From Candidatus Omnitrophota bacterium (GTDB taxonomy: Bacteria > Omnitrophota > Gorgyraeia > Gygaellales > Profunditerraquicolaceae), in the NCBI GenBank assembly GCA_041650295.1, contig JBAZLM010000003.1:2933-66932 (forward strand): a stretch of DNA of 64,000 bases. Reading direction: 5' to 3'. Positions 1 through 57,434 of this stretch are shown here, piece by piece; the stretch's first letter is position 1, and every line of letters starts with the position of its first letter. The notes below the pieces were generated by a model. That model saw only the letters and a list, made by a program, of their open reading frames with translations. It was not told where the DNA came from and ran no database searches. The position numbers and the translations under genes are program-made.

Positions 1-958
1 CTGAAGTTGCAAAAACCTGCCAAGATTTATGTGCTTTACTTAATTTTTTACCTAAATCCTGCGCTTGTTTGCGATTATTACAAAGTGCAAATACCGCCGC
101 CCCACTTCCAGACATCATAATTTTTTCTAAGCCTATGTCAGAAAATGCTTTTTTAACCTGATTAATTACAGGATAAAGACTGGTAGTAGCAATTTCTAAG
201 TCATTGATCAGGTATTTGCGCTCAAACCTACTGCCTTTTTCAAGTAACTCAGAAGTTAGCATTTTAACATTACACTTCTTTCTTGTCAACCCCGCACCTT
301 GTTTTATTTCCAACTTTTTCCCATCTTGGATTTGCACAAGGTGCGGGGTCAATCTAGAAAAATGCCTGTCTGCCAGCAGACAGGCATCAAATTTTTCATA
401 AACCAAAGGTGTAGAAACCTTAAGATTAGGATAAATCAGCACAAACCAAAGCTTAAGCTTCCGCAAAGAAGGTAGGGGCGCAATCTTATCTCCGCGTTGG
501 CTACCTATAGCAAATTTAGTATTATAAATAAAGAACGCCACATCGCTACCTAGCTTTGCCCCTAAAGTAGCCAACCTTTTGAGCGATAAATTTAATTTCC
601 AGTATTTATTTAATCCCCAAAGAACAGCCGCGGCATTGCTAGAGCCTCCACCTAAACCTGCTCCCACCGGAATATTCTTTTTAAGCTCTATATCTAAACC
701 TAAATTTATTTTCTTTTCTTCTTTCAATAACTCTACTGCCCGCCAACAAAGATTAGTAGCGTCAATAGGCACAAATTTATGATTACATTTAATTTTAATT
801 AAATTATCCGCGCGATTTCTTAAAGTAATCGCATCGGCTAAATCAATTCGGCAAAATAAAGTACTTAAATTATGAAATTTATCTTGGCGTTTATTTAAAA
901 TTTGCAGATAAAGATTTACTTTGGCGAAGGATTTAACTGATAACAAGGATGGCTTCAT
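1..958 (-). CDS. ispE: 4-diphosphocytidyl-2-C-methyl-D-erythritol kinase (IspE), 3' end beyond window; carries an in-frame 63-bp palindromic insertion
   Basis: Manual translation of the minus strand from ATG at 958: MKPSLLSVKSFAKVNLYLQI...PVGAGLGGGSSNAAAVL...MSGSGAAVFAL. These are GHMP-kinase/IspE motifs. The frame stays open to position 1. The ORF is not in the track because it runs off the window edge. Confidence 0.8.
   Translation of the reverse strand, partial: MKPSLLSVKSFAKVNLYLQILNKRQDKFHNLSTLFCRIDLADAITLRNRADNLIKIKCNHKFVPIDATNLCWRAVELLKEEKKINLGLDIELKKNIPVGAGLGGGSSNAAAVLWGLNKYWKLNLSLKRLATLGAKLGSDVAFFIYNTKFAIGSQRGDKIAPLPSLRKLKLWFVLIYPNLKVSTPLVYEKFDACLLADRHFSRLTPHLVQIQDGKKLEIKQGAGLTRKKCNVKMLTSELLEKGSRFERKYLINDLEIATTSLYPVINQVKKAFSDIGLEKIMMSGSGAAVFALCNNRKQAQDLGKKLSKAHKSWQVFATS
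286..352 (-). repeat. Palindromic element (family 1 core) inserted in-frame within ispE: TTGACCCCGCACCTTGT-N31-ACAAGGTGCGGGGTTGAC
   Basis: A perfect 14-bp inverted repeat at 289-302 and 336-349 has the same CCCCGCACCTT core as the intergenic elements. Its length is 63 bp (21 codons) with no stop in the ispE frame. Confidence 0.6.
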
Positions 959-8282: not shown

Positions 8283-8352
8283 AGCTTTATTCTATGCCAA
8301 AAAAATACCCTCTGCAAGTATTTACTCACAAAAGGTTAACTAAAATTTAATT

Positions 8353-8391
8353 GCTGGGGCCCGATCTGAACGGACGACCTCAAAGTTATAA
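8353..8391 (-). repeat. Degenerate duplicate of the tRNA-Met 3' half (att-like remnant)
   Basis: CTGGGGCCCGATCTGAACGGACGACCTCAAAGTTATAAG versus the tRNA 3' half at 8850-8889 (36/39 identical). Same orientation, about 460 bp apart. Confidence 0.5.
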
Positions 8392-8540
8392 GACTTAAAA
8401 CCTATTTTCCAGCGACTTTTAGTGTTACTCTTTTAGTCGCCTCCTTTCTGTTTAGATGTTTATATTACACTGCTAAAGAAAATCTTGATTAAGTAAAAAA
8501 CTAGTCAATTAAGTCTAGCCCTTTGCGATAATTAATGATA

Positions 8541-8726: not shown

Positions 8727-8845
8727 ATTATGCCTCCTTGTTTAAAACTATCATATCGTAAATCCCAAAATTGTAAACAATTTAAACTACTAAAAAACTA
8801 CAAAAAAAACCCTGCAGCTTATTAAGCTCCAGGGTTTTTAATAAT

Positions 8846-8922
8846 GGTTGCGGGGGCCCGATTTGAACGGACGACCTCAAGGTTATGAGCCTTGCGAGCT
8901 ACCAGGCTGCTCCACCCCGCGA
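8846..8922 (-). tRNA. tRNA-Met (CAT), initiator-like (C1xA72 mismatch), CCA encoded
   Basis: The reverse complement CGCGGGGTGGAGCAGCCTGGTAGCTCGCAAGGCTCATAACCTTGAGGTCGTCCGTTCAAATCGGGCCCCCGCAACCA is close to E. coli tRNA-fMet. Confidence 0.85.
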
Positions 8923-14650: not shown

Positions 14651-15259
14651 TTAAAATTTAAAACCGCTAAATCCCATAAAACTTAAACTTAAAATCGAAG
14701 CAATAATAAAAGCTAAAGGAAAATCCTTTAAAGCTTTAGGAATATTGCACAGCTCTAATCTTTCTCTTATTCCTGACATCAATAACATCGCTAAAGTATA
14801 ACCCAAGCCCACACAAATGCCCTGAAAAACAGAATAATAAAGGCTTCCCGCCACTTCTTTACCATTTACAAAAAACATATCAATATTTAATACCGCCACA
14901 CCTAAAACCGCACAATTGGTTGTAATTAAAGTTAAATAAATTCCAAAAGCTCGGTATAAAGCAGGACTGATCTTCCTAATGAGCATTTCAATCAACTGTA
15001 CTAAAGCAGCAATAACTAAAACAAAAGAAAGTGTGCGTAAATACGTTAAATTAAGAGGCAGTAAAAAAAATCGATAAAGTAACCAAGTAACAACTGAAGA
15101 AGCAATAATTACAAAAGTAACCGCCGCACTCATCGCTAAAGCTTGTTTTGTATTTTTAGAGATAGCGATAAAAGGACAAAGCCCTAAAAAACGCGAAAGT
15201 ATAACATTATAAATAAATACTGAAGAAATAAATATACTTAAGAATTCTTGTGGACTCAT
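14651..15259 (-). CDS. rnfA: Rnf complex subunit A
   Basis: 202-aa polytopic membrane protein with LGLCPF and NCAVLG motifs. Confidence 0.85.
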   Translation of the reverse strand: MSPQEFLSIFISSVFIYNVILSRFLGLCPFIAISKNTKQALAMSAAVTFVIIASSVVTWLLYRFFLLPLNLTYLRTLSFVLVIAALVQLIEMLIRKISPALYRAFGIYLTLITTNCAVLGVAVLNIDMFFVNGKEVAGSLYYSVFQGICVGLGYTLAMLLMSGIRERLELCNIPKALKDFPLAFIIASILSLSFMGFSGFKF

Positions 15260-15849
15260 GATTTTCTAATTTTTAAGAAATTGAAAAAACCTAATAATAA
15301 ACCGATTACTAAAAGTGCCCCGGAAGGCATACCAAAAACAAATGCCGGTTCAAATCCCGGAATTAAAGTATGGCTAAAAATCTGCCCAGCACCTAAAAAT
15401 TCCCTAATTGCTGAAATAAGTACCAGAGCCAAAGTAAACCCCACCCCCATTCCTAAACCATCTAAAAAAGATTTGAGCAAATTGTTCTTACAAGCAAATG
15501 CCTCGGCACGACCTAAAACTATACAATTAACTACAATTAAAGGAACATATATGCCTAAAGCCCGATCCAGTACCGGACTATAAGCTTTTAGAATTAATTC
15601 AATTATCGTAACAAAAGTAGCAATGATGACAATAAAGCAAGGAATACGTATCTTATTAGGAATAAAATTCTTTACTAAAGAAATAATTACACTTGAACCC
15701 AAAAGTACAAAAGTCGCAGCTATTCCCATTCCGATCGCATTAACTACCGATACAGAAACTGCTAATGTTGGACACAATCCCAAAGCCAAAACAAATGTGG
15801 GATTTTCTTTAATTATGCCTTTAGTAAATTCCTTAATTAAATTCTTCAC
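15256..15849 (-). CDS. rnfE: Rnf complex subunit E. The GTG start lies inside a repeat element
   Basis: The N-terminus aligns with E. coli RsxE (LGLCPTLAV; NCIVLGRAEAFA). Confidence 0.85.
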   Translation of the reverse strand: MKNLIKEFTKGIIKENPTFVLALGLCPTLAVSVSVVNAIGMGIAATFVLLGSSVIISLVKNFIPNKIRIPCFIVIIATFVTIIELILKAYSPVLDRALGIYVPLIVVNCIVLGRAEAFACKNNLLKSFLDGLGMGVGFTLALVLISAIREFLGAGQIFSHTLIPGFEPAFVFGMPSGALLVIGLLLGFFNFLKIRKS

Positions 15850-15931
15850 CCCGCACCTTCTCCTATATTATTAATTAATTTTAACCCTCACTCCTTCCAA
15901 CAATTGAGTTCAAAGAAAGTGCGGGGTTCAT
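15847..15931 (-). repeat. Family-1 palindromic start-codon element (copy 2) at the rnfD|rnfE junction
   Basis: ATGAACCCCGCACTTTCTTTG...GGAGAAGGTGCGGGGTG. The uORF ATG overlaps the rnfD TGA (ATGA). The terminal GTG is the rnfE start. Confidence 0.6.
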
Positions 15932-25609: not shown

Positions 25610-27619
25610 CTATTCATTAATTAATTGTTTAATCTCATCTAAATGCTTACGCGCTTCAGCTTCACCGCGGCGGGCAAACTCATCGGCTTTATGTAGCTCT
25701 AACCAAAACAAACCGGTAGTATCCGGATGTAAAACAATGTCTGCCAACTCCCCTTCACGCCGAGCAACTTCCGATTGCAAAACCTCAACGCTACTAAAAA
25801 TAATATCAACAATATTTAAATTCAAAATACCCTTTAACCAACTAAAAAAATTAAAACCTTTTTGCAACTGATTAGCTTGACCAACCGCAGGAATAGTTTC
25901 TTTAAGCCTAGCCAGCTGTTTTAAAATATCTTCCCGCGATGGAGTAACATTAACGGCAATAATCTTTCTAATCCCCATCTGCATCAAAGGCTCAGTCGGT
26001 AGAGGATAAGTTACCCCTCCATCAAAAAGGATCTCTTCTTTAAATTTAAAAGGTGCAAAGACCCCCGGCATCGAACAGCTGGCCATTATAGCATCAACCA
26101 GCAAACCTTTATCAAAAATTTTTGGTTCTTTTTTGTGCACATTGCTAGCAATTATCTTTAAAGGCAACTTTACATCATAAAAAGTTTTATCCCCGAACTG
26201 CTTTTTTAAAAAACGGTACAACTTATTACCTTTAATAAAACCAAAACGCGGGAAAGTTATATCAATTAATCCCCAAATGTGCTTAGGCTCTTTAAATTCT
26301 CTAATAATATCTAGAATTTCACCGCTACTTTTACCAATTGCCCAAAGACTAGCAATTAAAGAACCAATACTAGAGCCAACGATTGTATCGATGGGTATCT
26401 TTTCTTCTTCAATAACTTTTAACACCCCCACATGACAAAAACCATAGCCCACCCCTACCCCTAAAACTAAGCCAACCTGACAATCACCGAGGTTTCTAGC
26501 GATTCTTCTCACCGCTTTAGAGTATTCACTATCCGGTTGATCGATAATTTGCCGATCAGGAGCTTGAGATTCTATTTTAGGAATAGTGGCAAAGATATCC
26601 TGGCCTAAAATATCCAATTGATCGCTATGATTAATTTTGGCCAATTTATATTCATTAACAATAGTAATAATTTTTTTCGCATCAAAATTAAAATCATTCT
26701 CTAAACGACTAATTAAATTGTTGGTACGCTTTAAATCTAAAGGATCCGGACTAGTCAGGATATGGATAAGATCGGACTGGTTGAGGATGGTAATCATAGC
26801 CTGATCCATCGCCACAGGCAAATCTAAAATAATATAATGATAATCATTCACCAGAATGCTAACTATCTCAATTAATCTTTTAAGGCAAGCAGGATTATTC
26901 TCCTGATAATAAAAACAAAATAAGTCTATACCAAAGCTACTTTTTAAAAGATAGTCTTTTGGTAAAGTATAGATATCCGAAGCAGTGGATAAATCAAAGA
27001 TTGGCGGTTGCTCTATCCCCAATTTAGCCGGTAAAGAGTGTGGTCTACCGCAAGGCAAGATATCTAAAATAATCACTGATTTATGCGTTTCGCGATTTAA
27101 ACTTAAGCCCAAATTTAAAGCATAAATAGTTTTCCCCGCTTGAGCATAAGAACTAAAAATAGAGATAACTGTGCTTTCAAAGATTTTTTTCTGATGCACA
27201 TCTTTATGTTTAAGGCGTCGACTTAACGTCCGACTTAAATCAATTGCCAGATGAGGAATTTTTTGTAAAACATCATCAAAATCTTCTTTTTTAATTACCA
27301 AAATAACACAATCGTTAATCGCTTCACTAGTCACCGAGTGCGCTTCACTAGTTAACAATGAAATAATCCCAAAATATTTACCGCGATGTAAATACTCTAA
27401 AACTGATTGCTTGCCATTTTGATCTTTGGTATAAATCTGCACTCGGCCAGAGATAATGCAATAAAAAGCGCAAGGGTTAGCCCCTTGCGCATAAATAATT
27501 TGCCCCTTGCGATATTCAACGATCTGACTTTTAGCGTTAATTATTGCCAGCTGGCCTTTACTTAGACCAGCAAAAAAAGGTAATTCTTTTATAATAAATT
27601 CTTTATCTTTGGGATTCAC
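25610..27619 (-). CDS. Cyclic-nucleotide-binding (CAP effector) domain / ParA-MinD-like NTPase-like / patatin-like phospholipase fusion protein. The GTG start lies inside a repeat element
   Basis: N-terminal cNMP-binding beta-barrel (GQIIYAQGANPCAFYCIISGRVQIY...YFGIISLL). The central region resembles deviant ParA/MinD (SYAQAGKT). The C-terminus is patatin with GxGxxG and GSSIGS (GxSxG). Confidence 0.65.
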   Translation of the reverse strand: MNPKDKEFIIKELPFFAGLSKGQLAIINAKSQIVEYRKGQIIYAQGANPCAFYCIISGRVQIYTKDQNGKQSVLEYLHRGKYFGIISLLTSEAHSVTSEAINDCVILVIKKEDFDDVLQKIPHLAIDLSRTLSRRLKHKDVHQKKIFESTVISIFSSYAQAGKTIYALNLGLSLNRETHKSVIILDILPCGRPHSLPAKLGIEQPPIFDLSTASDIYTLPKDYLLKSSFGIDLFCFYYQENNPACLKRLIEIVSILVNDYHYIILDLPVAMDQAMITILNQSDLIHILTSPDPLDLKRTNNLISRLENDFNFDAKKIITIVNEYKLAKINHSDQLDILGQDIFATIPKIESQAPDRQIIDQPDSEYSKAVRRIARNLGDCQVGLVLGVGVGYGFCHVGVLKVIEEEKIPIDTIVGSSIGSLIASLWAIGKSSGEILDIIREFKEPKHIWGLIDITFPRFGFIKGNKLYRFLKKQFGDKTFYDVKLPLKIIASNVHKKEPKIFDKGLLVDAIMASCSMPGVFAPFKFKEEILFDGGVTYPLPTEPLMQMGIRKIIAVNVTPSREDILKQLARLKETIPAVGQANQLQKGFNFFSWLKGILNLNIVDIIFSSVEVLQSEVARREGELADIVLHPDTTGLFWLELHKADEFARRGEAEARKHLDEIKQLINE

Positions 27620-27694
27620 TCCGCACCTTCTTCTTTATTCGCTACCTAACCCGCACCTCTTAATATATAAATACAAAGAAGATGCGGGGTTCAT
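27617..27694 (-). repeat. Family-1 palindromic start-codon element (copy 3)
   Basis: ATGAACCCCGCATCTTCTTTG...AGAAGAAGGTGCGGAGTG. The uORF ATG directly follows the GH1 TAA (TAAATG). The terminal GTG is the start of the downstream gene. Confidence 0.55.
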
Positions 27695-32945: not shown

Positions 32946-33572
32946 TTATTGATGCTCCTCTAAAAACTTTTGTAAATCTTTAGCTAAAGGTGCTTCTATA
33001 GTCACTAGTTTTGCCGTTTGTGGATGCTCAAACTCTAAATGTTGAGCATGTAAACAAACTCTTTTGGCCCGCAAAGCAAAATCTTTACGAAAAACAAATT
33101 TATCTTCCCCAACCAGAGGATGACCAATTCCTTTAAAATGAATACGAATCTGATTAGTTCTACCAGTAACCGGAGAGATCTCTACTACACAATAATTACT
33201 TTTTTGTTCTATAATTTTATATTTTGTAATCGCACTCTTACCTTCAATCGCTACGCTAATCGTTCCTTGAGCATGCGCTAATTTTCCGTGCACAAAAGCA
33301 AAATACTTTTTACTAACCTGGCGATTTCTAAAAGCATCCGCCATTTTAGCTTCTATGGCTTTAGATTTAGCATAAATAACTAACCCGGAAGTATCGCGAT
33401 CCAACCGATGACAAGGATAAAGCTGATAAACTAACCCTCTGTCTTTAGCGTCTTGATTTAAAATACTGGTTAACGTGCGCGATTCATTTTTTGGCGTCGG
33501 TACGCATAACAAGCCCGCCGGCTTGTCTACAATCAAAAGATAATCATCTTCAAAAACAATCGGAATATTCAC
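32946..33572 (-). CDS. RluA-family pseudouridine synthase. The GTG start lies inside a repeat element
   Basis: HRLDRDTSGLVIYAK catalytic motif. 208 aa. Confidence 0.75.
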   Translation of the reverse strand: MNIPIVFEDDYLLIVDKPAGLLCVPTPKNESRTLTSILNQDAKDRGLVYQLYPCHRLDRDTSGLVIYAKSKAIEAKMADAFRNRQVSKKYFAFVHGKLAHAQGTISVAIEGKSAITKYKIIEQKSNYCVVEISPVTGRTNQIRIHFKGIGHPLVGEDKFVFRKDFALRAKRVCLHAQHLEFEHPQTAKLVTIEAPLAKDLQKFLEEHQ

Positions 33573-33643
33573 CCAGCACCTTCTCTTTATTCATCTAACC
33601 CTACATCTTCTATATTTAAATATCAAGAAAGTGCGGGGTTCAT
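33570..33643 (-). repeat. Family-1 palindromic start-codon element (copy 4)
   Basis: ATGAACCCCGCACTTTCTTGA...GAGAAGGTGCTGGGTG. The uORF ATG overlaps the nadA TAA (TAATG). Confidence 0.55.
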
Positions 33644-38263: not shown

Positions 38264-39220
38264 TTACCGGCAGTGCATTAGATCCCCGCTACTCACTTTT
38301 ATCATCACTCCGGAATCCTTGCGAATCAGCAATGCTCCGTCAATATCGATATCTTGCGCCATCCCCTCAATATGTTTATCCTGGCAGTATACTTTAACCC
38401 GCTTACCCAAAGTAAGCCCAAAATGACGCCACTTCTCTACAATGGCCATATTCCCTTTTTTCTCTAATAAAAAATAATTCTCCTCTAATCTAAACAAAAG
38501 CTCCTGTAATAGCGTTACCCGGTTAACCGGTTGATCCAGCTGCTCTCTTAATGAAGTGGCTTGAGCAATTAAAGACTTCTTATCGTTATTCACATTTAGA
38601 CCGATTCCGATGACAATAAAATTAACTTTATCTACTTCAGCGTTCATCTCCGTTAAAATTCCGGCTAATTTCTTATTATGAATTAATACATCATTGGGCC
38701 ATTTAATCTGACTATCGATATCGCAAACCTCCTTTACCGCTTCACAGATACTCACCGCACTCAAAAGAGTTAAAATTGGTGAAACCGCTGGGGCAATCTT
38801 TGGTCTTAGAATTAATGAAAGGTAAATTCCTTTATATTTTGGCGAAGACCACTCTCTACCTAATCTGCCTCTGCCTTTAGTCTGTGATTCCGCTAATACC
38901 AAAGTTCCGCTAGCTGCTCCCTGCATCCCCAACTCCATCGCTAAATTCATCGTAGAATTTAAATAATCAAAATATTTAATTTTTTTACCGATAAACTTGG
39001 TGCGTAGATTACGTAAAACTTCAAAAGGAAAGAGCCGATCCGGACAAGACTGTAAACGATAACCCAAATGCGGCACTGCTTCAATTTCATAACCAGAATC
39101 TTTTAATTCCTGAATATGTTTCCACAACCCCTGACGACTAATCCCTAAATTCTTACTGATCTGATCGCCAGAAAGATAATCGTGTTCTTTACTTAGATAA
39201 TCGAGTATTTTTTCTTTCAC
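38264..39220 (-). CDS. birA: Bifunctional biotin-[acetyl-CoA-carboxylase] ligase / biotin operon repressor. The GTG start lies inside a repeat element
   Basis: N-terminal HTH (LSGDQISKNLGISRQGLWKHI) plus the BPL catalytic domain (GRGRLGREW). Confidence 0.8.
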   Translation of the reverse strand: MKEKILDYLSKEHDYLSGDQISKNLGISRQGLWKHIQELKDSGYEIEAVPHLGYRLQSCPDRLFPFEVLRNLRTKFIGKKIKYFDYLNSTMNLAMELGMQGAASGTLVLAESQTKGRGRLGREWSSPKYKGIYLSLILRPKIAPAVSPILTLLSAVSICEAVKEVCDIDSQIKWPNDVLIHNKKLAGILTEMNAEVDKVNFIVIGIGLNVNNDKKSLIAQATSLREQLDQPVNRVTLLQELLFRLEENYFLLEKKGNMAIVEKWRHFGLTLGKRVKVYCQDKHIEGMAQDIDIDGALLIRKDSGVMIKVSSGDLMHCR

Positions 39221-39297
39221 CCCGCACCTTCTAATTATTCATTAATCTTAAACCACCGCGCCTTCTAATATTATTCAAAAGAAGGTGCGGGGTTCAT
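39218..39297 (-). repeat. Family-1 palindromic start-codon element (copy 5)
   Basis: ATGAACCCCGCACCTTCTTTTGAATAA...TTAGAAGGTGCGGGGTG. The uORF ATG overlaps the upstream TGA (ATGA). Confidence 0.6.
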
Positions 39298-40358: not shown

Positions 40359-41490
40359 GTAGTTTTTTAACCACGGGAGGTAATTTTTCTAACAGATAAT
40401 CAATATCACTTTCGGTGGTCCAGCGACCCAGAGTTATTCTTAAAGATCCATGAGCAGTTCCATGATCTAAACCAATCGCTAATAAAACATGTGAAGGCTC
40501 TAAAGAGCTCGAGGTACAGGCTGAACCGGTGGAGCAAGCGATCCCCAGCATGTCTAGGCTTAAAAGCATCGACTCCCCTTCAATATATTTAATCGAAAAA
40601 TTGACATTATTGGGTAAACGTTTAGTCGCGTGGCCATTAAGAATAACTTCGGGAATCTTTAAAGGAATCTCTTTAATTAATCTATCCCTTAAAGCACTTT
40701 GCAATTTAATTTCATCTTTCATATTCTTTTGACAAAGCTCAACTGCTTTAGCCAGACCAACTATCCCCGGAATATTGTGTGTAGAACCTCGTCTACCTCT
40801 CTCTTGGTCACCACCGCGCATAAAAGTCTCTAAACGTGTACCTTTGCGAATATACAAAGCACCCACACCTTTGGGACCATAAAATTTATGCGCCGCTAAT
40901 GATAATAGATCAACATTGAGCTCATTTACATTTATCGGGATATGACCCACTGTCTGCACAGCATCCGTATGAAAATAAATTCCTTTTTCTTTAGCAATTT
41001 TTCCCAAAATTTCAATTGGCTGCAATGTTCCAATTTCATTATTAGCGTGCATAATACTAATTAGAATAGTTTTGTCGGTAATCGCCTTTTTTAAATCTTC
41101 CGGCAAAACTAAACCATCTTTATCCACTCCTAAATAAGTAACTTGAAAACCTTTTTTTTCTAAAAACTTTAACGGCTCGCTAATCGCATGGTGCTCAATC
41201 GCTGAGGTAATAATATGGTTGCCTTTTTTTTCTAAAGCATAAGCCACACCCATAATCGCATAATTATCCGACTCAGTTCCCCCAGAAGTAAAAACGATCT
41301 CTTCGGGTTTAGCGCCGATAAAATCTGCCAAAGTTTGTCGACTATCCTCTAGAGCTTTCTTAGCTTCTTGTCCATAGGCATGCAAGCTAGAAGCATTACC
41401 AAATTTTTCAAAAAAATACGGCTCCATCGCTTTTAAAACTAACGGATCAGTGGGTGTAGTTGCCGCATAATCTAAATATACTTTCTTCAC
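40327..41490 (-). CDS. iscS: Cysteine desulfurase (IscS/NifS). The GTG start lies inside a repeat element
   Basis: SGGTESDN, the PLP Lys region SLAAHKFYGPKG, and active-site SSGSACTS. Confidence 0.85.
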   Translation of the reverse strand: MKKVYLDYAATTPTDPLVLKAMEPYFFEKFGNASSLHAYGQEAKKALEDSRQTLADFIGAKPEEIVFTSGGTESDNYAIMGVAYALEKKGNHIITSAIEHHAISEPLKFLEKKGFQVTYLGVDKDGLVLPEDLKKAITDKTILISIMHANNEIGTLQPIEILGKIAKEKGIYFHTDAVQTVGHIPINVNELNVDLLSLAAHKFYGPKGVGALYIRKGTRLETFMRGGDQERGRRGSTHNIPGIVGLAKAVELCQKNMKDEIKLQSALRDRLIKEIPLKIPEVILNGHATKRLPNNVNFSIKYIEGESMLLSLDMLGIACSTGSACTSSSLEPSHVLLAIGLDHGTAHGSLRITLGRWTTESDIDYLLEKLPPVVKKLRAMSPLYEEK

Positions 41491-41566
41491 CCCGCACCTT
41501 CTCTCTATTAATTAACTCTTACCCTACGCCTTCTAATGTCTAATTTAACGAAGGTGCGGGGTTCAT
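41488..41566 (-). repeat. Family-1 palindromic start-codon element (copy 6)
   Basis: ATGAACCCCGCACCTTCGTTAAATTAG...GAGAAGGTGCGGGGTG. Its ATG overlaps the TGA of a 7-codon mini-ORF that begins at the GTG of the adjacent family-2 element. Confidence 0.6.
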
Positions 41567-41582
41567 CTCTTAATTACCTCAT

Positions 41583-41654
41583 TCACCACGTTAGAAACAG
41601 GTTGTCGCAGACAACCGTAAATTATCTTTTTGCCTTGTTTCTAACGAGGTTCAT
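41583..41654 (-). repeat. Family-2 palindromic element (copy a), 72 nt, fused in-frame onto the 3' end of the PP-loop ATPase gene
   Basis: ATGAACCTCGTTAGAAACAAGG...GGTTGTCTGCGACAACCTGTTTCTAACGTGGTGAAT. It shares its termini with family 1. The upstream ORF reads through ...SMNLVRNKAKR* inside it. Confidence 0.6.
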
Positions 41655-42437
41655 ACTACCAGTGCGATATCCTTCTAAATCTAATGTTATATAATTAAAC
41701 CCAAACTTTTTTAAACGTTCGACAATCTGTTGGCGCTTATTAAACAATTTATTTAAATCTTGTTTACCGACTTCAATACGACAAAATTCATGGTAATAAC
41801 GCAAACGCACTTGTTTGAAACCTAAACTATTGATATACTCTTCGGCCTGGTTGATTCTCCTCAATAATTTCGCGGTTATTTTAGTTCCGTAAGGGATACG
41901 CGAAGCCAAACAAGCTAAGCTTGGCTTATTCCAACTAGAAAGCCCTAACTTCTTACTTAATTTACAAATATCTATTTTCGTAAAACCCGCTTCAACTAAC
42001 GGCGACTTAATTTTCAACTCTGCTTTCGCCAAACTCCCTGGACGATAATCACCTTTATCCGTTATATTACTGGCTTCAAAAACAAAATTTAATTTATTTT
42101 GTTTAGCAATCTTAATTAACTTTAAAAAGAGCTCTTTTTTACAAAAATAACAACGCTTAACCGGATTAGCCGTAAACTTTTTATTACTTAATTCTTGCGT
42201 TCTAATTACTTTAAGCTCTACCCCAATATCTTTAGCTAATTTCTTAGCTTTAACTAACTCACTTTTAGGATAAGTCTGGGAAACCGCGGTGACCGCTAAA
42301 AATTTATCCGGTGCAAGGGTTAACGCACAAACTTTAAGCAGGAGTGCACTATCCTGGCCGCCGGAAAACGCCACTATACATGATTTATATCTACCAATGA
42401 TACGCTTAAGTAAATCTAACTTCTTTTGCAGAATCAT
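41622..42437 (-). CDS. PP-loop superfamily ATPase (LarE/COG1606-like sulfur transferase). The C-terminal tail is encoded by a repeat element
   Basis: CIVAFSGGQDSALLL PP-loop. 271 aa. Confidence 0.6.
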   Translation of the reverse strand: MILQKKLDLLKRIIGRYKSCIVAFSGGQDSALLLKVCALTLAPDKFLAVTAVSQTYPKSELVKAKKLAKDIGVELKVIRTQELSNKKFTANPVKRCYFCKKELFLKLIKIAKQNKLNFVFEASNITDKGDYRPGSLAKAELKIKSPLVEAGFTKIDICKLSKKLGLSSWNKPSLACLASRIPYGTKITAKLLRRINQAEEYINSLGFKQVRLRYYHEFCRIEVGKQDLNKLFNKRQQIVERLKKFGFNYITLDLEGYRTGSMNLVRNKAKR

Positions 42438-55090: not shown

Positions 55091-55950
55091 TAATTTTTTC
55101 CACTAAAGAAGACCGACGACTAATTACTGAAATACCCGACACAAGCTCTTTTTCGCCTGGTGATCGAAACCTTTGTTTTCTGATTCATGGACTTACCGGC
55201 ACCGCCAAAGAGATGGGTTCAATTGCTAAAAATTTAAATAAAAACGGTTTTTCTGTCGCTTGCCCCTTAATGGCTAACCACAATAAATCTATCTCTTGCC
55301 TTAAGCGCACAAGTTGGCAAGAACTATATAATTCTGTACGCCAAGAATTTATTAAATATGCCCATGATTATGAGAATATTTTTGTGGCCGGCTTATCTTT
55401 TGGTGCTTTAATTGGAATTATGCTGGCTTACGAATTCCCAAAAAAAGTTAAAGCCTTAAATTGCTTCTCTCCCACTCTCTTCTTTGACGGTTGGGCCAAT
55501 CCTAAATTAAGATTTCTTTTACCACTAGTTTATAAAACACCGCTAAAATATTGTTTTTATCTTAAAGAAGGGCATCCTTATGGGATTAAAAATGAGAGGC
55601 TGCGTTCAAGAATTGAAAACTTCTATACAAAATCAGAATTATTTGATTACAGCAAAGTACATCTCTACGGATACCCCGTAATTCCGGTATCTAGCATGGA
55701 ACAGAATCATTTACTGGCAAAACAAGTAATGAAAATACTTCCCCTCGTAACTACTCCGATACAGCTGCTGGGTGCCAAAGACGACGACGTCACTAGCCCC
55801 AAAAACTCTTATTATATCTATAACCATATTGGTTCAAAAGATAAAGAGGTAATATTATTCGAAAATTCCTACCACATTATTATTGCAGATCAAGAAAGGG
55901 ATAAAGTTGCGGAAAAAACTTTATCTTTTTTTCAAAAATACAAAACTTAA
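55087..55950 (+). CDS. Alpha/beta-hydrolase fold esterase/lipase
   Basis: GLSFG nucleophile elbow. 287 aa. Confidence 0.55.
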   Translation: MIIFSTKEDRRLITEIPDTSSFSPGDRNLCFLIHGLTGTAKEMGSIAKNLNKNGFSVACPLMANHNKSISCLKRTSWQELYNSVRQEFIKYAHDYENIFVAGLSFGALIGIMLAYEFPKKVKALNCFSPTLFFDGWANPKLRFLLPLVYKTPLKYCFYLKEGHPYGIKNERLRSRIENFYTKSELFDYSKVHLYGYPVIPVSSMEQNHLLAKQVMKILPLVTTPIQLLGAKDDDVTSPKNSYYIYNHIGSKDKEVILFENSYHIIIADQERDKVAEKTLSFFQKYKT

Positions 55951-57434
55951 GATTTTTTTAAGGCTCTAATTAACGCTTCTTCGAAAAGTTCAACCCCTAA
56001 ATCAATCTCTTCTTCCGTAATATAAAAAGAAGGTGCAATGGTAAAGACGTTTTTATAATAACCACCAACGTCTAAAATTAAACCTCGGCGTTTTCCTTTT
56101 ACATCTAAAGAACCGCTTAAACCTAAATTAACAATCTTATCGGTGAGCTCTTTATTAGGCGTATAGCCGTCTTTTTCGCAGATCTCCATACGCAAAGCCA
56201 AACCAATTCCATCAACATCACCGATCTGAGGATATTTTTTCTGTAATTTCTTAAGTTGATCAATAAAATAACGACCTTTTTTAGGGATCGATAATGCAAA
56301 ATCAGACTCTTCAATTAATTTCATCACCGCCAACCCCGCAGTTGTCCCCAAGGTATTAGAGGAAAATGTCGCATGAGTAGAACCCGGAGGAAAAACATCC
56401 GGATTAATTAATTTCTCTTTAGCCCAGATTCCGCTAATCGGATTTAACCCATTAGTTAGTGCTTTACCAAAAACAATGATATCCGGGGTAATATTAAAAT
56501 GCTCAATCGCCCAGAACTTTCCCGTGCGGAAAAATCCCATTTGGATCTCATCGTCCACAAAAAGAATTCCGTAGCGATCTAAAATTTCTTTTAGTTTAGA
56601 ATAATACTCTTGCGGTGGAACAATATAACCACCAGTACCTTGAATCGCTTCAGCATAAAAAGCGGCAAACTCACATTTATTATTCTTCTTATTCACCACT
56701 GAATAATATTCAGTCTCAAAAAGTCTTTCAAACTGTTTTAAACAATATAAATCACAAAAATCTCTTTTCTTATCATATGGACATCTAAAACAATACGGAT
56801 ATGGAATAAACATTGCCCGGTCTCCAAAATGACCGAAACGTTCCCTATATCTAAAACTCGAGGTAATCGCCGAAGCCGCTAATGTCCTCCCGTGATAACC
56901 ACCCATAAAAGCAAAAACCAAACTTCTACCAGTATTATTACGCACTAACTTTAATGAATCCTCTAAAGCACTGGAACCTCCGACATTAAAATGAATTCTC
57001 CCTTTCTCTTCAAAAGTCCGCTGATTTTTCTGAGCTAATTTTGTTGCTAACTCAATTTTTTCAGTATGCAAATACTGGCAAGCTAGTTGTGGTAAGGTAT
57101 CGATTTGCTTTTTTAATGCTTCATTGAGTTGAGGATTACCATAACCAAAGTTCACCGCTGAATACCACATCTGCAAATCTAAAAATTCTGTCCCTTGATC
57201 ATCATAAAGATAGCTACCATGAGAGCGCTTAAATATATTTAACTTTTCCGCATAATGCACGGTATCTCCCCAAGAGCAATATTTTGCTTCCAGATCAAGC
57301 AACTCATTATGCGTAATATTCTTTTTAATTTTAGCACTTCTCTTAATCATCGCTTTTGAATTCACCCCGTTAGAAACAGGTTGCCAGAGGCAACCGTGGG
57401 GCTTCTCTTTTATCTTATTTCTAACGGGGTTCAT
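55947..57434 (-). CDS. Class-III PLP-dependent aminotransferase. The N-terminal 26 codons are encoded by a family-2 repeat element (true start may be the internal GTG or ATG)
   Basis: DDEIQMGFFRTGKFWA and FGKALTNG (PLP-Lys) motifs. The track ORF begins at the element's ATG: MNPVRNKIKEKPHGCLWQPVSNGVNS. Confidence 0.7.
   Translation of the reverse strand: MNPVRNKIKEKPHGCLWQPVSNGVNSKAMIKRSAKIKKNITHNELLDLEAKYCSWGDTVHYAEKLNIFKRSHGSYLYDDQGTEFLDLQMWYSAVNFGYGNPQLNEALKKQIDTLPQLACQYLHTEKIELATKLAQKNQRTFEEKGRIHFNVGGSSALEDSLKLVRNNTGRSLVFAFMGGYHGRTLAASAITSSFRYRERFGHFGDRAMFIPYPYCFRCPYDKKRDFCDLYCLKQFERLFETEYYSVVNKKNNKCEFAAFYAEAIQGTGGYIVPPQEYYSKLKEILDRYGILFVDDEIQMGFFRTGKFWAIEHFNITPDIIVFGKALTNGLNPISGIWAKEKLINPDVFPPGSTHATFSSNTLGTTAGLAVMKLIEESDFALSIPKKGRYFIDQLKKLQKKYPQIGDVDGIGLALRMEICEKDGYTPNKELTDKIVNLGLSGSLDVKGKRRGLILDVGGYYKNVFTIAPSFYITEEEIDLGVELFEEALIRALKKS
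57363..57434 (-). repeat. Family-2 palindromic element (copy b), 72 nt, in-frame with the aminotransferase
   Basis: ATGAACCCCGTTAGAAATAAG...GGTTGCCTCTGGCAACCTGTTTCTAACGGGGTGAAT. The ATG overlaps the upstream HAD-gene TGA (ATGA). Confidence 0.6.

Follow-up and report, generated by a model that had tools for sequence, protein, structure and literature searches.

Short repeats inserted at translation start codons in Omnitrophota and their probable origin from a small GIY-YIG nuclease element

A 64,000-nt stretch of contig JBAZLM010000003.1 (assembly GCA_041650295.1, Candidatus Omnitrophota bacterium; positions 2,933 to 66,932), referred to below as the window, carries short palindromic repeats at the first codons of unrelated genes, the focal copy lying between rnfD and rnfE. 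We conclude that these repeats very probably represent a mobile element which inserts into start codons, duplicates the tetranucleotide TGAA, and descends from a longer element encoding a GIY-YIG nuclease. The conclusion draws on target-site duplications (TSDs), on empty orthologous sites and on full-length relatives with the same termini.

Repeat copies in the window

The 13-nt 5' arm of the repeat, CCCCGCACCTTCT, was matched 15 times in the window with up to two mismatches, against 0.81 matches expected (none of 100 shuffled sequences attained 15), and the 3' end, GGTGCGGGGTGAA, was matched 11 times against 0.65 expected. The matches pair into seven elements. Six of these had been listed in a preliminary description of this DNA and were all present; the seventh, at 286-352, was added here. 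A profile built from about 110 copies of the family recovered the same seven copies and no others. In all seven, the 13-nt arms CCCCGCACCTTCT/AGAAGGTGCGGGG were perfect or had at most one mismatch per arm.

Six copies lie in gene sense at the first codon of a long open reading frame (ORF), all of these genes being on the minus strand, and share the layout ATGAA-CCCCGCACCTTCT-(interior with a degenerate middle arm)-AGAAGGTGCGGGG-TGAA (Table 1). Their cores measure 71, 78, 71, 67, 73 and 72 nt. The palindrome proper runs from CCCC to GGGG, while the four bases outside it form a direct and not an inverted repeat of TGAA. The upstream ORFs (uORFs) opened by the left-hand ATG have 14, 16, 19, 6, 8 and 8 codons, in agreement with the 6-19 codons reported before. 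In a mechanical ORF list the GTG at the 3' junction is the first possible start of the six long ORFs (4753, 15849, 27619, 33572, 39220 and 41490).

Distribution of the family

One genome per species was scanned for two perfect arms 30-60 nt apart. The motif was not confined to the window: the scan returned 94 stretches in 31 assemblies, all of them metagenome-assembled genomes (MAGs) titled Omnitrophota/Omnitrophica or uncultured Planctomycetia/Planctomycetales. The taxon labels are the records' own, and the gene models are crude ORF calls. Together, these 94 loci (designated by L numbers) and the window provided 111 copies with enough flanking sequence to judge, with cores of 52-94 nt. Viral contigs searched with the short-copy and full-length patterns gave no match.

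Target-site duplications and empty orthologous sites

Identical 4-nt flanks were found in 93 of the 111 copies. Flanks other than TGAA change together on both sides (TGAG in four copies, TGGA, TAAA, TCAA and TTAA in two each, and TGAT in one), and there are full-length copies of the element, described below, flanked by TGCA/TGCA and TGGA/TGGA. Because both sides co-vary when they are not TGAA, the flanking tetranucleotides are a 4-bp TSD, usually TGAA and with T-G/A-A-A as its consensus. The ATG of the uORF, which had earlier been regarded as element sequence, is therefore the host A followed by TGAA, i.e. the ancestral start codon and the first two bases of codon 2. The new start in turn consists of the terminal G of the element and the duplicated TGA-A. 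The earlier statement that the element supplies the ribosome-binding site (RBS) and the GTG start thus holds for the RBS, and for the GTG it holds for the G alone, since the TGA comes from the duplicated target. The ATGA and TAATG overlaps with upstream stop codons, on which the proposed location at stop/start junctions had been based, are ordinary ancestral operon junctions. All four overlaps or abutments were confirmed by the ends of the upstream ORFs, at 15928 and 39294 (ATGA), 33643 (TAATG) and 27695 (TAAATG).

Pairs of occupied and empty orthologous sites were obtained by comparing the proteins encoded downstream of elements with all element-bearing loci. The rnfD/rnfE junction, occupied in the window, is empty in an 84%-identical ortholog (L063, ...ttattgatcggtatactaaaaataaaatttacggaacaaaATGAAaagcctagttaaagaattt). 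The difference in length is exactly 82 nt, corresponding to the 78-nt element and the 4-nt duplication, and the RnfE ortholog aligns with RnfE of the window from residue 1. Two further starts that carry a copy in the window behave in the same way, namely hisG (empty in L014, ..gaggtttATGAAAAATAAG, and occupied in L018) and the rluA-like gene (empty in L008, ..gaacatATGAATATCCC, and occupied in L019). The converse case, a start occupied in L072 and empty in the window, was also found, as were at least eight further occupied/empty pairs. Every empty site has an ATGAA or ATGAR start, and it follows that the element inserts into the start codon. The empty junctions of rnfE, hisG, rluA and at least eight other genes, the TSDs and the many copies in many genomes bear out the earlier proposal of a non-autonomous mobile element. 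Exact-protein look-ups for strain-level presence or absence at the sites of the window returned only identical contigs from the same sample and no variants to compare.

Two other readings of the repeats are affected by these data. A conserved, gene-specific leader that is not mobile would account for the location upstream of genes and for nothing more. Seven copies before unrelated genes in 64 kb, at least 111 copies in 31 assemblies and the TSDs are at odds with it, and the empty orthologous sites refute it, so that we attach practically no credence to this reading. The second reading likens the repeat to REP/RAYT or IS200/IS605-PATE, single-strand hairpin elements that would insert beside a fixed tetranucleotide without duplicating it. 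The strong terminal hairpin, the strict orientation (see below) and the constant adjoining TGAA fit such peel-and-paste transposition. It is nevertheless very improbable, since the flanking tetranucleotides co-vary when they are not TGAA (TGAG, TGGA, TGCA, TCAA, TTAA, TAAA and TGAT), as expected of a duplicated target, empty sites carry a single TGAA, and no Y1/HUH gene is associated with the copies, the only linked ORF being the GIY-YIG nuclease gene. As specific candidates, the REP/RAYT system (REPtron) was rejected for its lack of an associated Y1 gene, the presence of a TSD and the GIY-YIG nuclease as the only linked ORF, and IS200/IS605 with PATE was rejected for flanks that co-vary on both sides, terminal repeats that are perfect inverted repeats and the absence of TnpA.

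Start-codon preference and orientation

A start codon is present on both sides of the element in 89 of the 111 copies (∼80%), as ATG/GTG in 77, GTG/GTG in 10 and other combinations in two. An ORF of at least 100 codons (median 245) lies downstream in 74 of these 89. The purine asymmetry of the interior gave a single orientation relative to the gene in 85 copies and the reverse orientation in none, with four ties, and the profile scored the copies of the window at 47-54 bits in gene sense compared to 20-38 bits in antisense. Copies outside start codons, scored for their orientation relative to the TSD, had nearly equal profile scores on both strands.

In the window, six of 19 ATGAA-type starts are occupied, compared to none of 70 intergenic TGAA/TTCA sites, and under a crude neutral model the probability that at least six of seven copies lie at starts is 0.0013. 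Potential targets are abundant, as 23 of 61 crude gene starts in the window (about one third) read NTGAA. The GTG/GTG cases and the decayed 3' arms found on many left flanks represent tandem or stacked copies at one start, which indicates that the G-TGAA regenerated by an older copy can itself become the target of a new insertion.

The location at starts might also be the outcome of purifying selection only, with insertion at any T[G/A]AA-like site and survival of those copies that regenerate a start or sit in harmless spacers. This is possible and, in our judgement, somewhat doubtful. It is in keeping with a genome that is ∼86% coding, with copies outside starts that have TCAA, TTAA and TAAA duplications, with a second repeat family (described below) that lacks an SD-like (Shine-Dalgarno-like) arm and occurs at TAAA stop-like sites as often as at starts, and with the target itself, in which neither a consensus nor mimicry of the element end was detected beyond A-TGAA and the usual purine-rich SD zone. 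Selection alone does not readily explain the occupancy of starts versus intergenic sites, the repeated hits on one start codon that left tandem and decayed copies, or the finding that several lineages have full-length copies at shared junctions (nrdR, gcvPB), once with differing TSDs (TGAA versus TGCA). The second family favours selection combined with a less strict T[G/A]AA specificity, and occupancy and stacking favour preference. The start-codon occupancy may accordingly combine a real target preference with selection for harmless sites, and a non-palindromic 4-nt stagger would by itself fix the orientation.

Two variants of the element were observed. A subfamily with termini TCCC...GGGA, in which the outermost pair is compensated, regenerates ATG-AA instead of GTG-AA (L103 ∼1380-1960, L011 5904-5975, and L014, the last in the second family). 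In L103 a remnant arm, a full-length copy and a short copy are stacked head to tail on successive TGAA duplications. The 71-nt copy at L080 6297-6367 (2 mod 3) is in frame with both flanks: an ORF of 216 codons, opened by the upstream GTG, continues across the element into the host gene and might add 25 aa to the N-terminus of the host protein.

A full-length parent element encoding a GIY-YIG nuclease

In full-length copies, which measure 295-313 nt, the 13-nt inverted termini and the TSD of the short copies recur, together with an intact ORF for a GIY-YIG nuclease of 90-106 aa. The start of this ORF is the captured host ATG. Its reading frame crosses both termini (MNPAPS...KEGAG), the 5' arm supplying the codons AAC-CCC-GCA-CCT-TCT and the 3' arm GAA-GGT-GCG-GGG, and its stop codon is the TGA of G-TGA-A, which overlaps the regenerated GTG. 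A 294-nt version in L063 has the same arms and TGAA duplication and one frameshift in the nuclease ORF; the intact allele of this insertion is found in a metagenome (L115). A protein search with the repaired L063 ORF returned 124 homologs, and the arm-encoded MNPAPS N-terminus and/or ..KEGAG C-terminus was present in 71 of the 120 listed.

The full-length copies were found in four contexts: (i) gcvPA/gcvPB, (ii) the dCMP deaminase gene (cdd)/nrdR, (iii) ABC ATPase/permease, and (iv) RND adaptor (MFP)/pump. In each context the nuclease ORF overlaps the downstream gene by 4 nt (GTGA), and in three it also overlaps the upstream gene by 4 nt (ATGA); the copy in the RND context begins 5 nt past the MFP adaptor gene. 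At nrdR the junction reads GTG-AGA-TGT-CCC-TCT-TGC, or M-R-C-P-S-C, the canonical zinc-ribbon N-terminus of NrdR.

The nuclease matches Pfam PF01541 (GIY-YIG) with E=1e-16, and the catalytic residues Y15, Y26, G28, R36, H40 and E60 are invariant in 31 diverse members. A sequence search of the PDB with phmmer identified the UPF0213 proteins BH0048 and EF2693 (1zg2, 1ywl; E=1e-7 to 4e-7) and SLX1 (2e-3). An AlphaFold model (predicted local distance difference test, pLDDT, 88.7) consists of the nuclease domain and one long helix. Foldseek superimposed it on the nuclease domain of Slx1 with a root mean square deviation of 1.3-2.0 Å over ∼75 residues at 30-39% identity, and the fold also matches the UvrC and I-TevI domains. 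In both sequence and structure the parent protein is thus closest to UPF0213 (COG2827, YhbQ/BH0048/EF2693) and the Slx1 domain, whose catalytic residues it shares, and on sequence and model evidence it is a Slx1/UPF0213-type GIY-YIG nuclease. Slx1 cleaves DNA that is branched or forms stem-loops, an activity that would be of use to an element with hairpin or cruciform ends. To our knowledge, the cellular UPF0213 members are treated as single-copy proteins with an unsettled or a repair function, and none has been described within inverted repeats, as multicopy or as mobile.

The dN/dS ratio of the nuclease was 0.035-0.25 in four of six pairs of orthologous insertion sites, dS being saturated in the other two. 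For L097 versus L123, dN/dS was 0.028/0.79 in the nuclease and 0.028/0.90 in nrdR, and the other three usable pairs gave ratios of 0.10-0.25. Judged by these substitution rates, the nuclease is co-diverging with the flanking gene under purifying selection at orthologous insertion sites.

The short copies align with the ends of the full-length element over ∼25 nt at the 5' side and ∼45 nt at the 3' side, and their mini-peptides (MNPAPS.YS.IKAIRF.ELNKKEGAG) align with the C-terminus of the nuclease, ..AYSGLKLRIKNSLNKKEGAG. The 73-nt mini-ORFs showed a weak excess of variability at third codon positions (entropy 1.06 versus 0.86 and 0.83, in copies that are not independent). The copies of the window are in all likelihood deletion derivatives, resembling miniature inverted-repeat transposable elements (MITEs), of a ∼300-nt parent that bears the nuclease. 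Formally they fall within the definition of a MITE, having terminal inverted repeats (TIRs), a TSD, small size, many copies and a longer parent, except that this parent has no recognised transposase.

The GIY-YIG protein is, in our opinion, more likely than not the enzyme that mobilises the full-length and the short copies. An ordinary MITE could instead be moved in trans by an unlinked conventional transposase, e.g. of the DDE type, reading the 13-nt termini, with the GIY-YIG ORF as a passenger or stabilising gene. TIRs combined with a TSD of fixed length are a hallmark of DDE transposition, no GIY-YIG transposase is known to us, and one 290-nt copy (L125) has an interior unrelated to GIY-YIG. 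Nonetheless, we consider this unlikely. A search for unpaired arms at spacings of 0.7-3 kb in the element-bearing loci (∼0.8 Mb of MAG fragments) revealed no longer element with a transposase ORF, nor was any DDE, HUH or recombinase partner found in these loci. In many lineages both termini form part of the nuclease ORF, whose start, frame and stop are set by the TSD and the arms, and its invariant catalytic residues and purifying selection do not fit a passenger. The strict 85:0 orientation is not expected of symmetric TIRs. The single candidate arm pair, in L029, was considered as an autonomous element and rejected as a chance match that encloses mnmE/folC-like genes.

Several full-length or related loci deserve separate mention. 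In L117 and L095, from two related organisms, the gcvPA/gcvPB junction is occupied by full-length copies flanked by TGCA/TGCA and TGAA/TGAA, respectively, each fitting the second codon of its host. These different duplications, and a dS of 0.73 for the nuclease against 1.58 for the flanking gcvPB, point to insertions at one start codon that were independent or repeated. A full-length copy at L101 1380-1830, in a MAG titled Sedimentisphaerales and labelled Planctomycetota, has the same arms and a nuclease ORF with its own ATG and its own stop inside the arms, and there is no start codon in its left flank. The L125 copy (630-919) has the arms of this family and an ATGAA junction around a GC-rich interior with hairpins, which may represent different cargo or a nested insertion. 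A more distantly related small GIY-YIG gene (P0120, at L105 1380-1900) is bracketed by two copies of the 5' part of a tRNA and adjoins a phage-type integrase gene; this insertion is of a different kind from the start-codon elements.

Effects on the invaded gene

By sequence, the product of the invaded gene keeps its N-terminus: the GTG supplies fMet, and the original second codon comes next. At a distance of 4-10 nt from the regenerated GTG, upstream of it in the AGAAGGTGCGGGG region, there is an SD-like GAAGGTG (often GGAGAAGGTG), so that the placement of the SD-like sequence in the 3' arm was correct. An SD-like 4-mer also precedes about half of the genes of the window, compared to 15% of random positions, which indicates that the organism uses SDs. 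The ancestral SD or stop/start overlap now serves the ORF of the element or its remnant. The claim that the terminal GTG is the downstream start agrees with the ORF list, with orthologs that align from residue 1, with the NrdR motif M-R-C-P-x-C and with a public assembly in which an independent gene caller placed the start of an identical 197-aa RnfE product at the GTG of the window.

The two arms are predicted to form a stem of 14-16 bp (-25.5 to -35.2 kcal/mol, z -2.5 to -7) that covers the SD-like bases and the G and U of the GUG, as had been supposed. An alternative hairpin of the 5' and middle arms, also put forward before, is predicted for all six start-codon copies of the window at -13 to -23 kcal/mol; in the focal copy it has -18.2 kcal/mol against -29.3 kcal/mol for the outer hairpin. 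The middle arm of this subfamily sits where the parent encodes ..LKLRI... It looks like the product of a graded convergence on the arm sequence, and in some copies, e.g. in L001, it is possibly the leftover 3' arm of a nested copy. A wobble test for a hairpin in the sense RNA, restricted to the 18 imperfect copies and confounded by the constraint on SD and start, found eight changes compatible with G-U pairing in the 5' arm and 16 disruptive ones in the 3' arm, besides five compensated pairs.

Among the 89 start-codon copies, 60 have an element length of 1 mod 3, and in 42 an ORF from the ancestral ATG spans the whole element to the TGA of the TSD. Sense frame 0 is open in 44 of them, compared to one and four for the other two frames.

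Pairing of the termini in the mRNA would bury SD and GTG, and ribosomes coming from the ancestral ATG or from the upstream cistron would melt the 5' arm and expose them, thereby coupling the host gene to upstream translation. In frame-preserving copies, ribosomes would terminate on GTGA and reinitiate. In the subfamily of the window, the middle arm, which is transcribed before the 3' arm, may trap the 5' arm as a decoy and leave the SD free during transcription. On these predictions, coupling of host-gene translation to upstream translation is plausible.

The anatomy of a leader attenuator (a sequestering outer stem, here of -24 to -34 kcal/mol, a stem of 5' and middle arms, and a uORF) is present in all six start-codon copies of the window, with a variable uORF length and neither a stalling motif nor an inducer to be deduced from the sequence. 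The repeat might thus be a domesticated regulatory cassette of the host, with the hairpin and uORF retained as a beneficial coupler or attenuator and mobility a matter of the past. The resemblance of its sequestering hairpin, alternative middle-arm hairpin and leader ORF to translational attenuators is in line with this, and copies persist at orthologous starts across species (rpmJ, nrdR and a gene whose product begins MKTKTVFS). We regard domestication as improbable, given that the targets share no function (hisG, rnfE, birA, iscS, rluA, patatin, rpmJ, nrdR, gcvPB, ABC and RND transporters), that presence and absence differ between close relatives, that uORF length and frame vary among the copies of the window, and that stacked, decaying copies look like repeated invasion. 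A selfish element that is harmless at start codons fits the data at least as well as a regulatory device of the host.

A second repeat family and other features of the window

The second family likewise has CCCC...GGGG ends and TGAA or TAAA duplications. Its arms, CCCCGTTAGAAA/TTTCTAACGGGG, are unrelated to those of the first family and contain no SD-like sequence, it has an inner GGTTGCC..GGCAACC hairpin, and stop-like TAAA sites are as frequent among its insertions as starts. It was found in the window and in L038, L014, L050, L055, L074 and L118; a full-length partner was not found.

Table 1. Copies of the two repeat families in the window and parts of the focal copy
Feature	Position	Strand	Basis or remark
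Focal short copy, rnfD/rnfE, including both TGAA duplications and the ancestral ATG	15845..15931	-	78-nt element
Ancestral rnfE start ATG, overlapping the rnfD stop (ATGA) and now opening the 16-codon uORF	15929..15931	-	rnfD ORF ends at 15928; empty L063 ortholog ...acaaaATGAAaagc
Upstream TSD copy TGAA at rnfE	15927..15930	-	Flank identity across copies
5' terminal inverted repeat CCCCGCACtTTCT, anti-SD-like, coding uORF P-A-L-S	15914..15926	-	Arm matches, fold
Middle arm GAAGGAGTGAGGGTT, alternative partner of the 5' arm	15883..15897	-	Sits where full-length elements encode ..LKLRI..
3' terminal inverted repeat AGAAGGTGCGGGG, SD-like, preceded by GG (GGAGAAGG); last G is base 1 of the new start	15849..15861	-	Arm matches, fold
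Downstream TSD copy TGAA; with the preceding G gives GTG-AAg, the rnfE start	15845..15848	-	ORF 15256..15849 begins here
Short copy, hisG start, 71-nt core, TGAA/TGAA	4749..4828	-	L014 ortholog empty, L018 occupied
Short copy, start of the cyclic nucleotide (cNMP)-binding/patatin ORF; upstream stop abuts the ancestral ATG (TAAATG)	27615..27694	-	ORF list, flanks
Short copy, RluA-like start, TAATG junction with the upstream ORF	33568..33643	-	L008 ortholog empty, L019 occupied
Short copy, birA start, ATGA junction with the upstream ORF; middle arm 39254-39266	39216..39297	-	Arm matches, ORF list
Short copy, iscS start	41486..41566	-	Product begins MKKVYLDYAATTP, which we take to be the canonical IscS N-terminus
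Seventh copy, off start codons; compensated arm variants CTTGT/ACAAG; TSD TCAA (+) = TTGA (-)	286..352		Orientation ambiguous
Second-family copy, TGAA/CCCCGTTAGAAAT...GTTTCTAACGGGG/TGAA, at the start of ORF 55947..57434	57361..57433	-	65-nt core; old ATG and new GTG in frame
Second-family copy with degenerate arms, 15 nt upstream of the iscS copy	41582..41653	-	ORF 41622..42437 ends inside

The downstream TTGA duplicated by the copy at 286-352, together with CA, forms the -35 element of a strong promoter-like site, TTGACA-17 nt-TAAAAT with TG, which has 11 of 12 matches (window 261-352, minus strand). This site adjoins a bidirectional terminator-like hairpin at 362-387.

The ORFs of the window are almost wholly on the minus strand, and its GC content is 36%. 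A 46-nt, 89%-identical duplicate of the 3' half of tRNA-Met (8351-8396 versus 8848-8893; tRNA at 8845-8921, minus strand) lies 497 nt downstream and resembles an att-type scar left by a small element that integrated or has decayed. A search of the whole window against Rfam 15 at the gathering threshold matched three tRNAs only. For the focal copy, a search at E≤1 assigned no family, the best match being PK-repBA with 18 bits against a gathering threshold of 45 (E=0.06).

Discussion

Insertion at A/TGAA leaves the ancestral ATG on the left and GTG-AAx on the right of the element, and according to the mechanism that we propose the nuclease would mobilise both full-length and short copies. With respect to MITEs and other short palindromic elements (Correia/NEMIS of Neisseria, RUP, ERIC), the shared traits are the short length (59-94 nt), perfect TIRs, a TSD of fixed length, many dispersed copies, an origin by deletion from a longer element that bears an ORF between identical ends, and co-transcription with genes, with possible hairpins in the mRNA. 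In contrast to these, the present family targets the start codon, regenerates start and SD, has a strict orientation and a TSD of TGAA rather than TA, and its parent encodes a GIY-YIG nuclease of ∼90 aa and not a DDE transposase.

Free-standing GIY-YIG genes (seg) of T4-like phages lie between conserved genes, with ORF overlaps that suggest translational coupling (PMC2988022). The seg genes and the I-TevI family share with the parent element a GIY-YIG gene wedged between undisrupted genes, without a promoter of its own and with an ORF that overlaps its neighbour. Their proteins have ∼200-250 aa, a separate DNA-binding domain and one cognate site that is invaded via double-strand-break repair, with no TIR, TSD or miniature forms, whereas the parent protein has 90-106 aa and no separate DNA-binding domain, and its element occupies many unrelated target genes and has TIRs, a TSD and short non-coding derivatives.

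Rickettsia palindromic elements (RPEs) are likewise short, palindromic mobile repeats and are tolerated inside expressed genes as harmless peptides. They insert in frame within coding regions, whereas the present family inserts at the initiation codon and mostly out of frame (the copies in L080 and at 57361-57433 are rare in-frame cases). Leader hairpins that act in attenuation or coupling (ermC/cat leaders, MS2-type coat-replicase) also combine a short uORF over one strand of the stem with SD and start on the other and an alternative upstream partner. Those leaders are single, gene-specific and inducible; here, the cassette is transposed and precedes unrelated housekeeping genes, with no evident stalling signal. 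No description of this element, of its arm sequence or of a TIR/TSD element around a UPF0213-type nuclease was found in a literature search whose coverage was incomplete (most subscription journals lay outside it), and the earlier designation of the element as undescribed stands provisionally.

A number of points weigh against our interpretation. We know of no GIY-YIG enzyme with transposase activity, and the products of known GIY-YIG nucleases are nicks or 3' overhangs of 1-2 nt and not a 4-nt stagger. The window contains no full-length copy. An intact one lies on another contig of ERZ27247363, the assembly whose contig k141_1876590 contains the window, which places it in the same assembly and not necessarily in the same organism. 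The copies of the window do not preserve the frame (lengths 0, 1 and 2 mod 3) and their uORFs end 15-50 nt before the GTG, so termination-reinitiation on GTGA is inapplicable to them. We infer the translation of the uORF, the use of the GTG and the effect of the hairpin from sequence. The loci were chosen by perfect arms, so arm conservation is not readable as selection, and copies within one genome share descent and are not independent. Finally, the start-codon preference comes without a sequence consensus past A-TGAA, and purifying selection in an 86%-coding genome could explain part or all of it.

A broader proposal, for and against which we see about equal weight, is that the full-length element stands for a new class of prokaryotic transposable elements. 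A lone Slx1-like nuclease would recognise the terminal hairpin or cruciform, cut T[G/A]AA with a 4-nt stagger and parasitise start codons, borrowing the SD and ATG of the host and repaying with an SD, a GTG and a GTGA overlap. Under this proposal the widespread small UPF0213/COG2827 proteins, or many of them, would be selfish mobile nucleases and not repair enzymes.

If our interpretation is true, these bacteria harbour a mobile element that inserts into translation start codons and is designed to keep the target gene expressed: the TSD and one terminal base remake the start, the inverted repeat doubles as an SD, and the stop codon of the element overlaps the new start. This would be a new way for a transposon to multiply in a compact genome packed with operons while sparing its host. 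The RBS of each invaded gene would lie under a strong hairpin, and dozens to hundreds of housekeeping genes may depend on upstream translation. The very small GIY-YIG nucleases of the Slx1/UPF0213 type, whose bacterial members have no settled function, would gain a testable role, which may add a class of transposition nucleases. For annotation, many gene starts of Omnitrophota would be GTGs made by the element, and the 24-28-codon or 100-codon ORFs upstream of them would be element-derived. The 13-nt arms would also be a simple marker by which these uncultured bacteria, and their dynamics at the strain level, could be followed.

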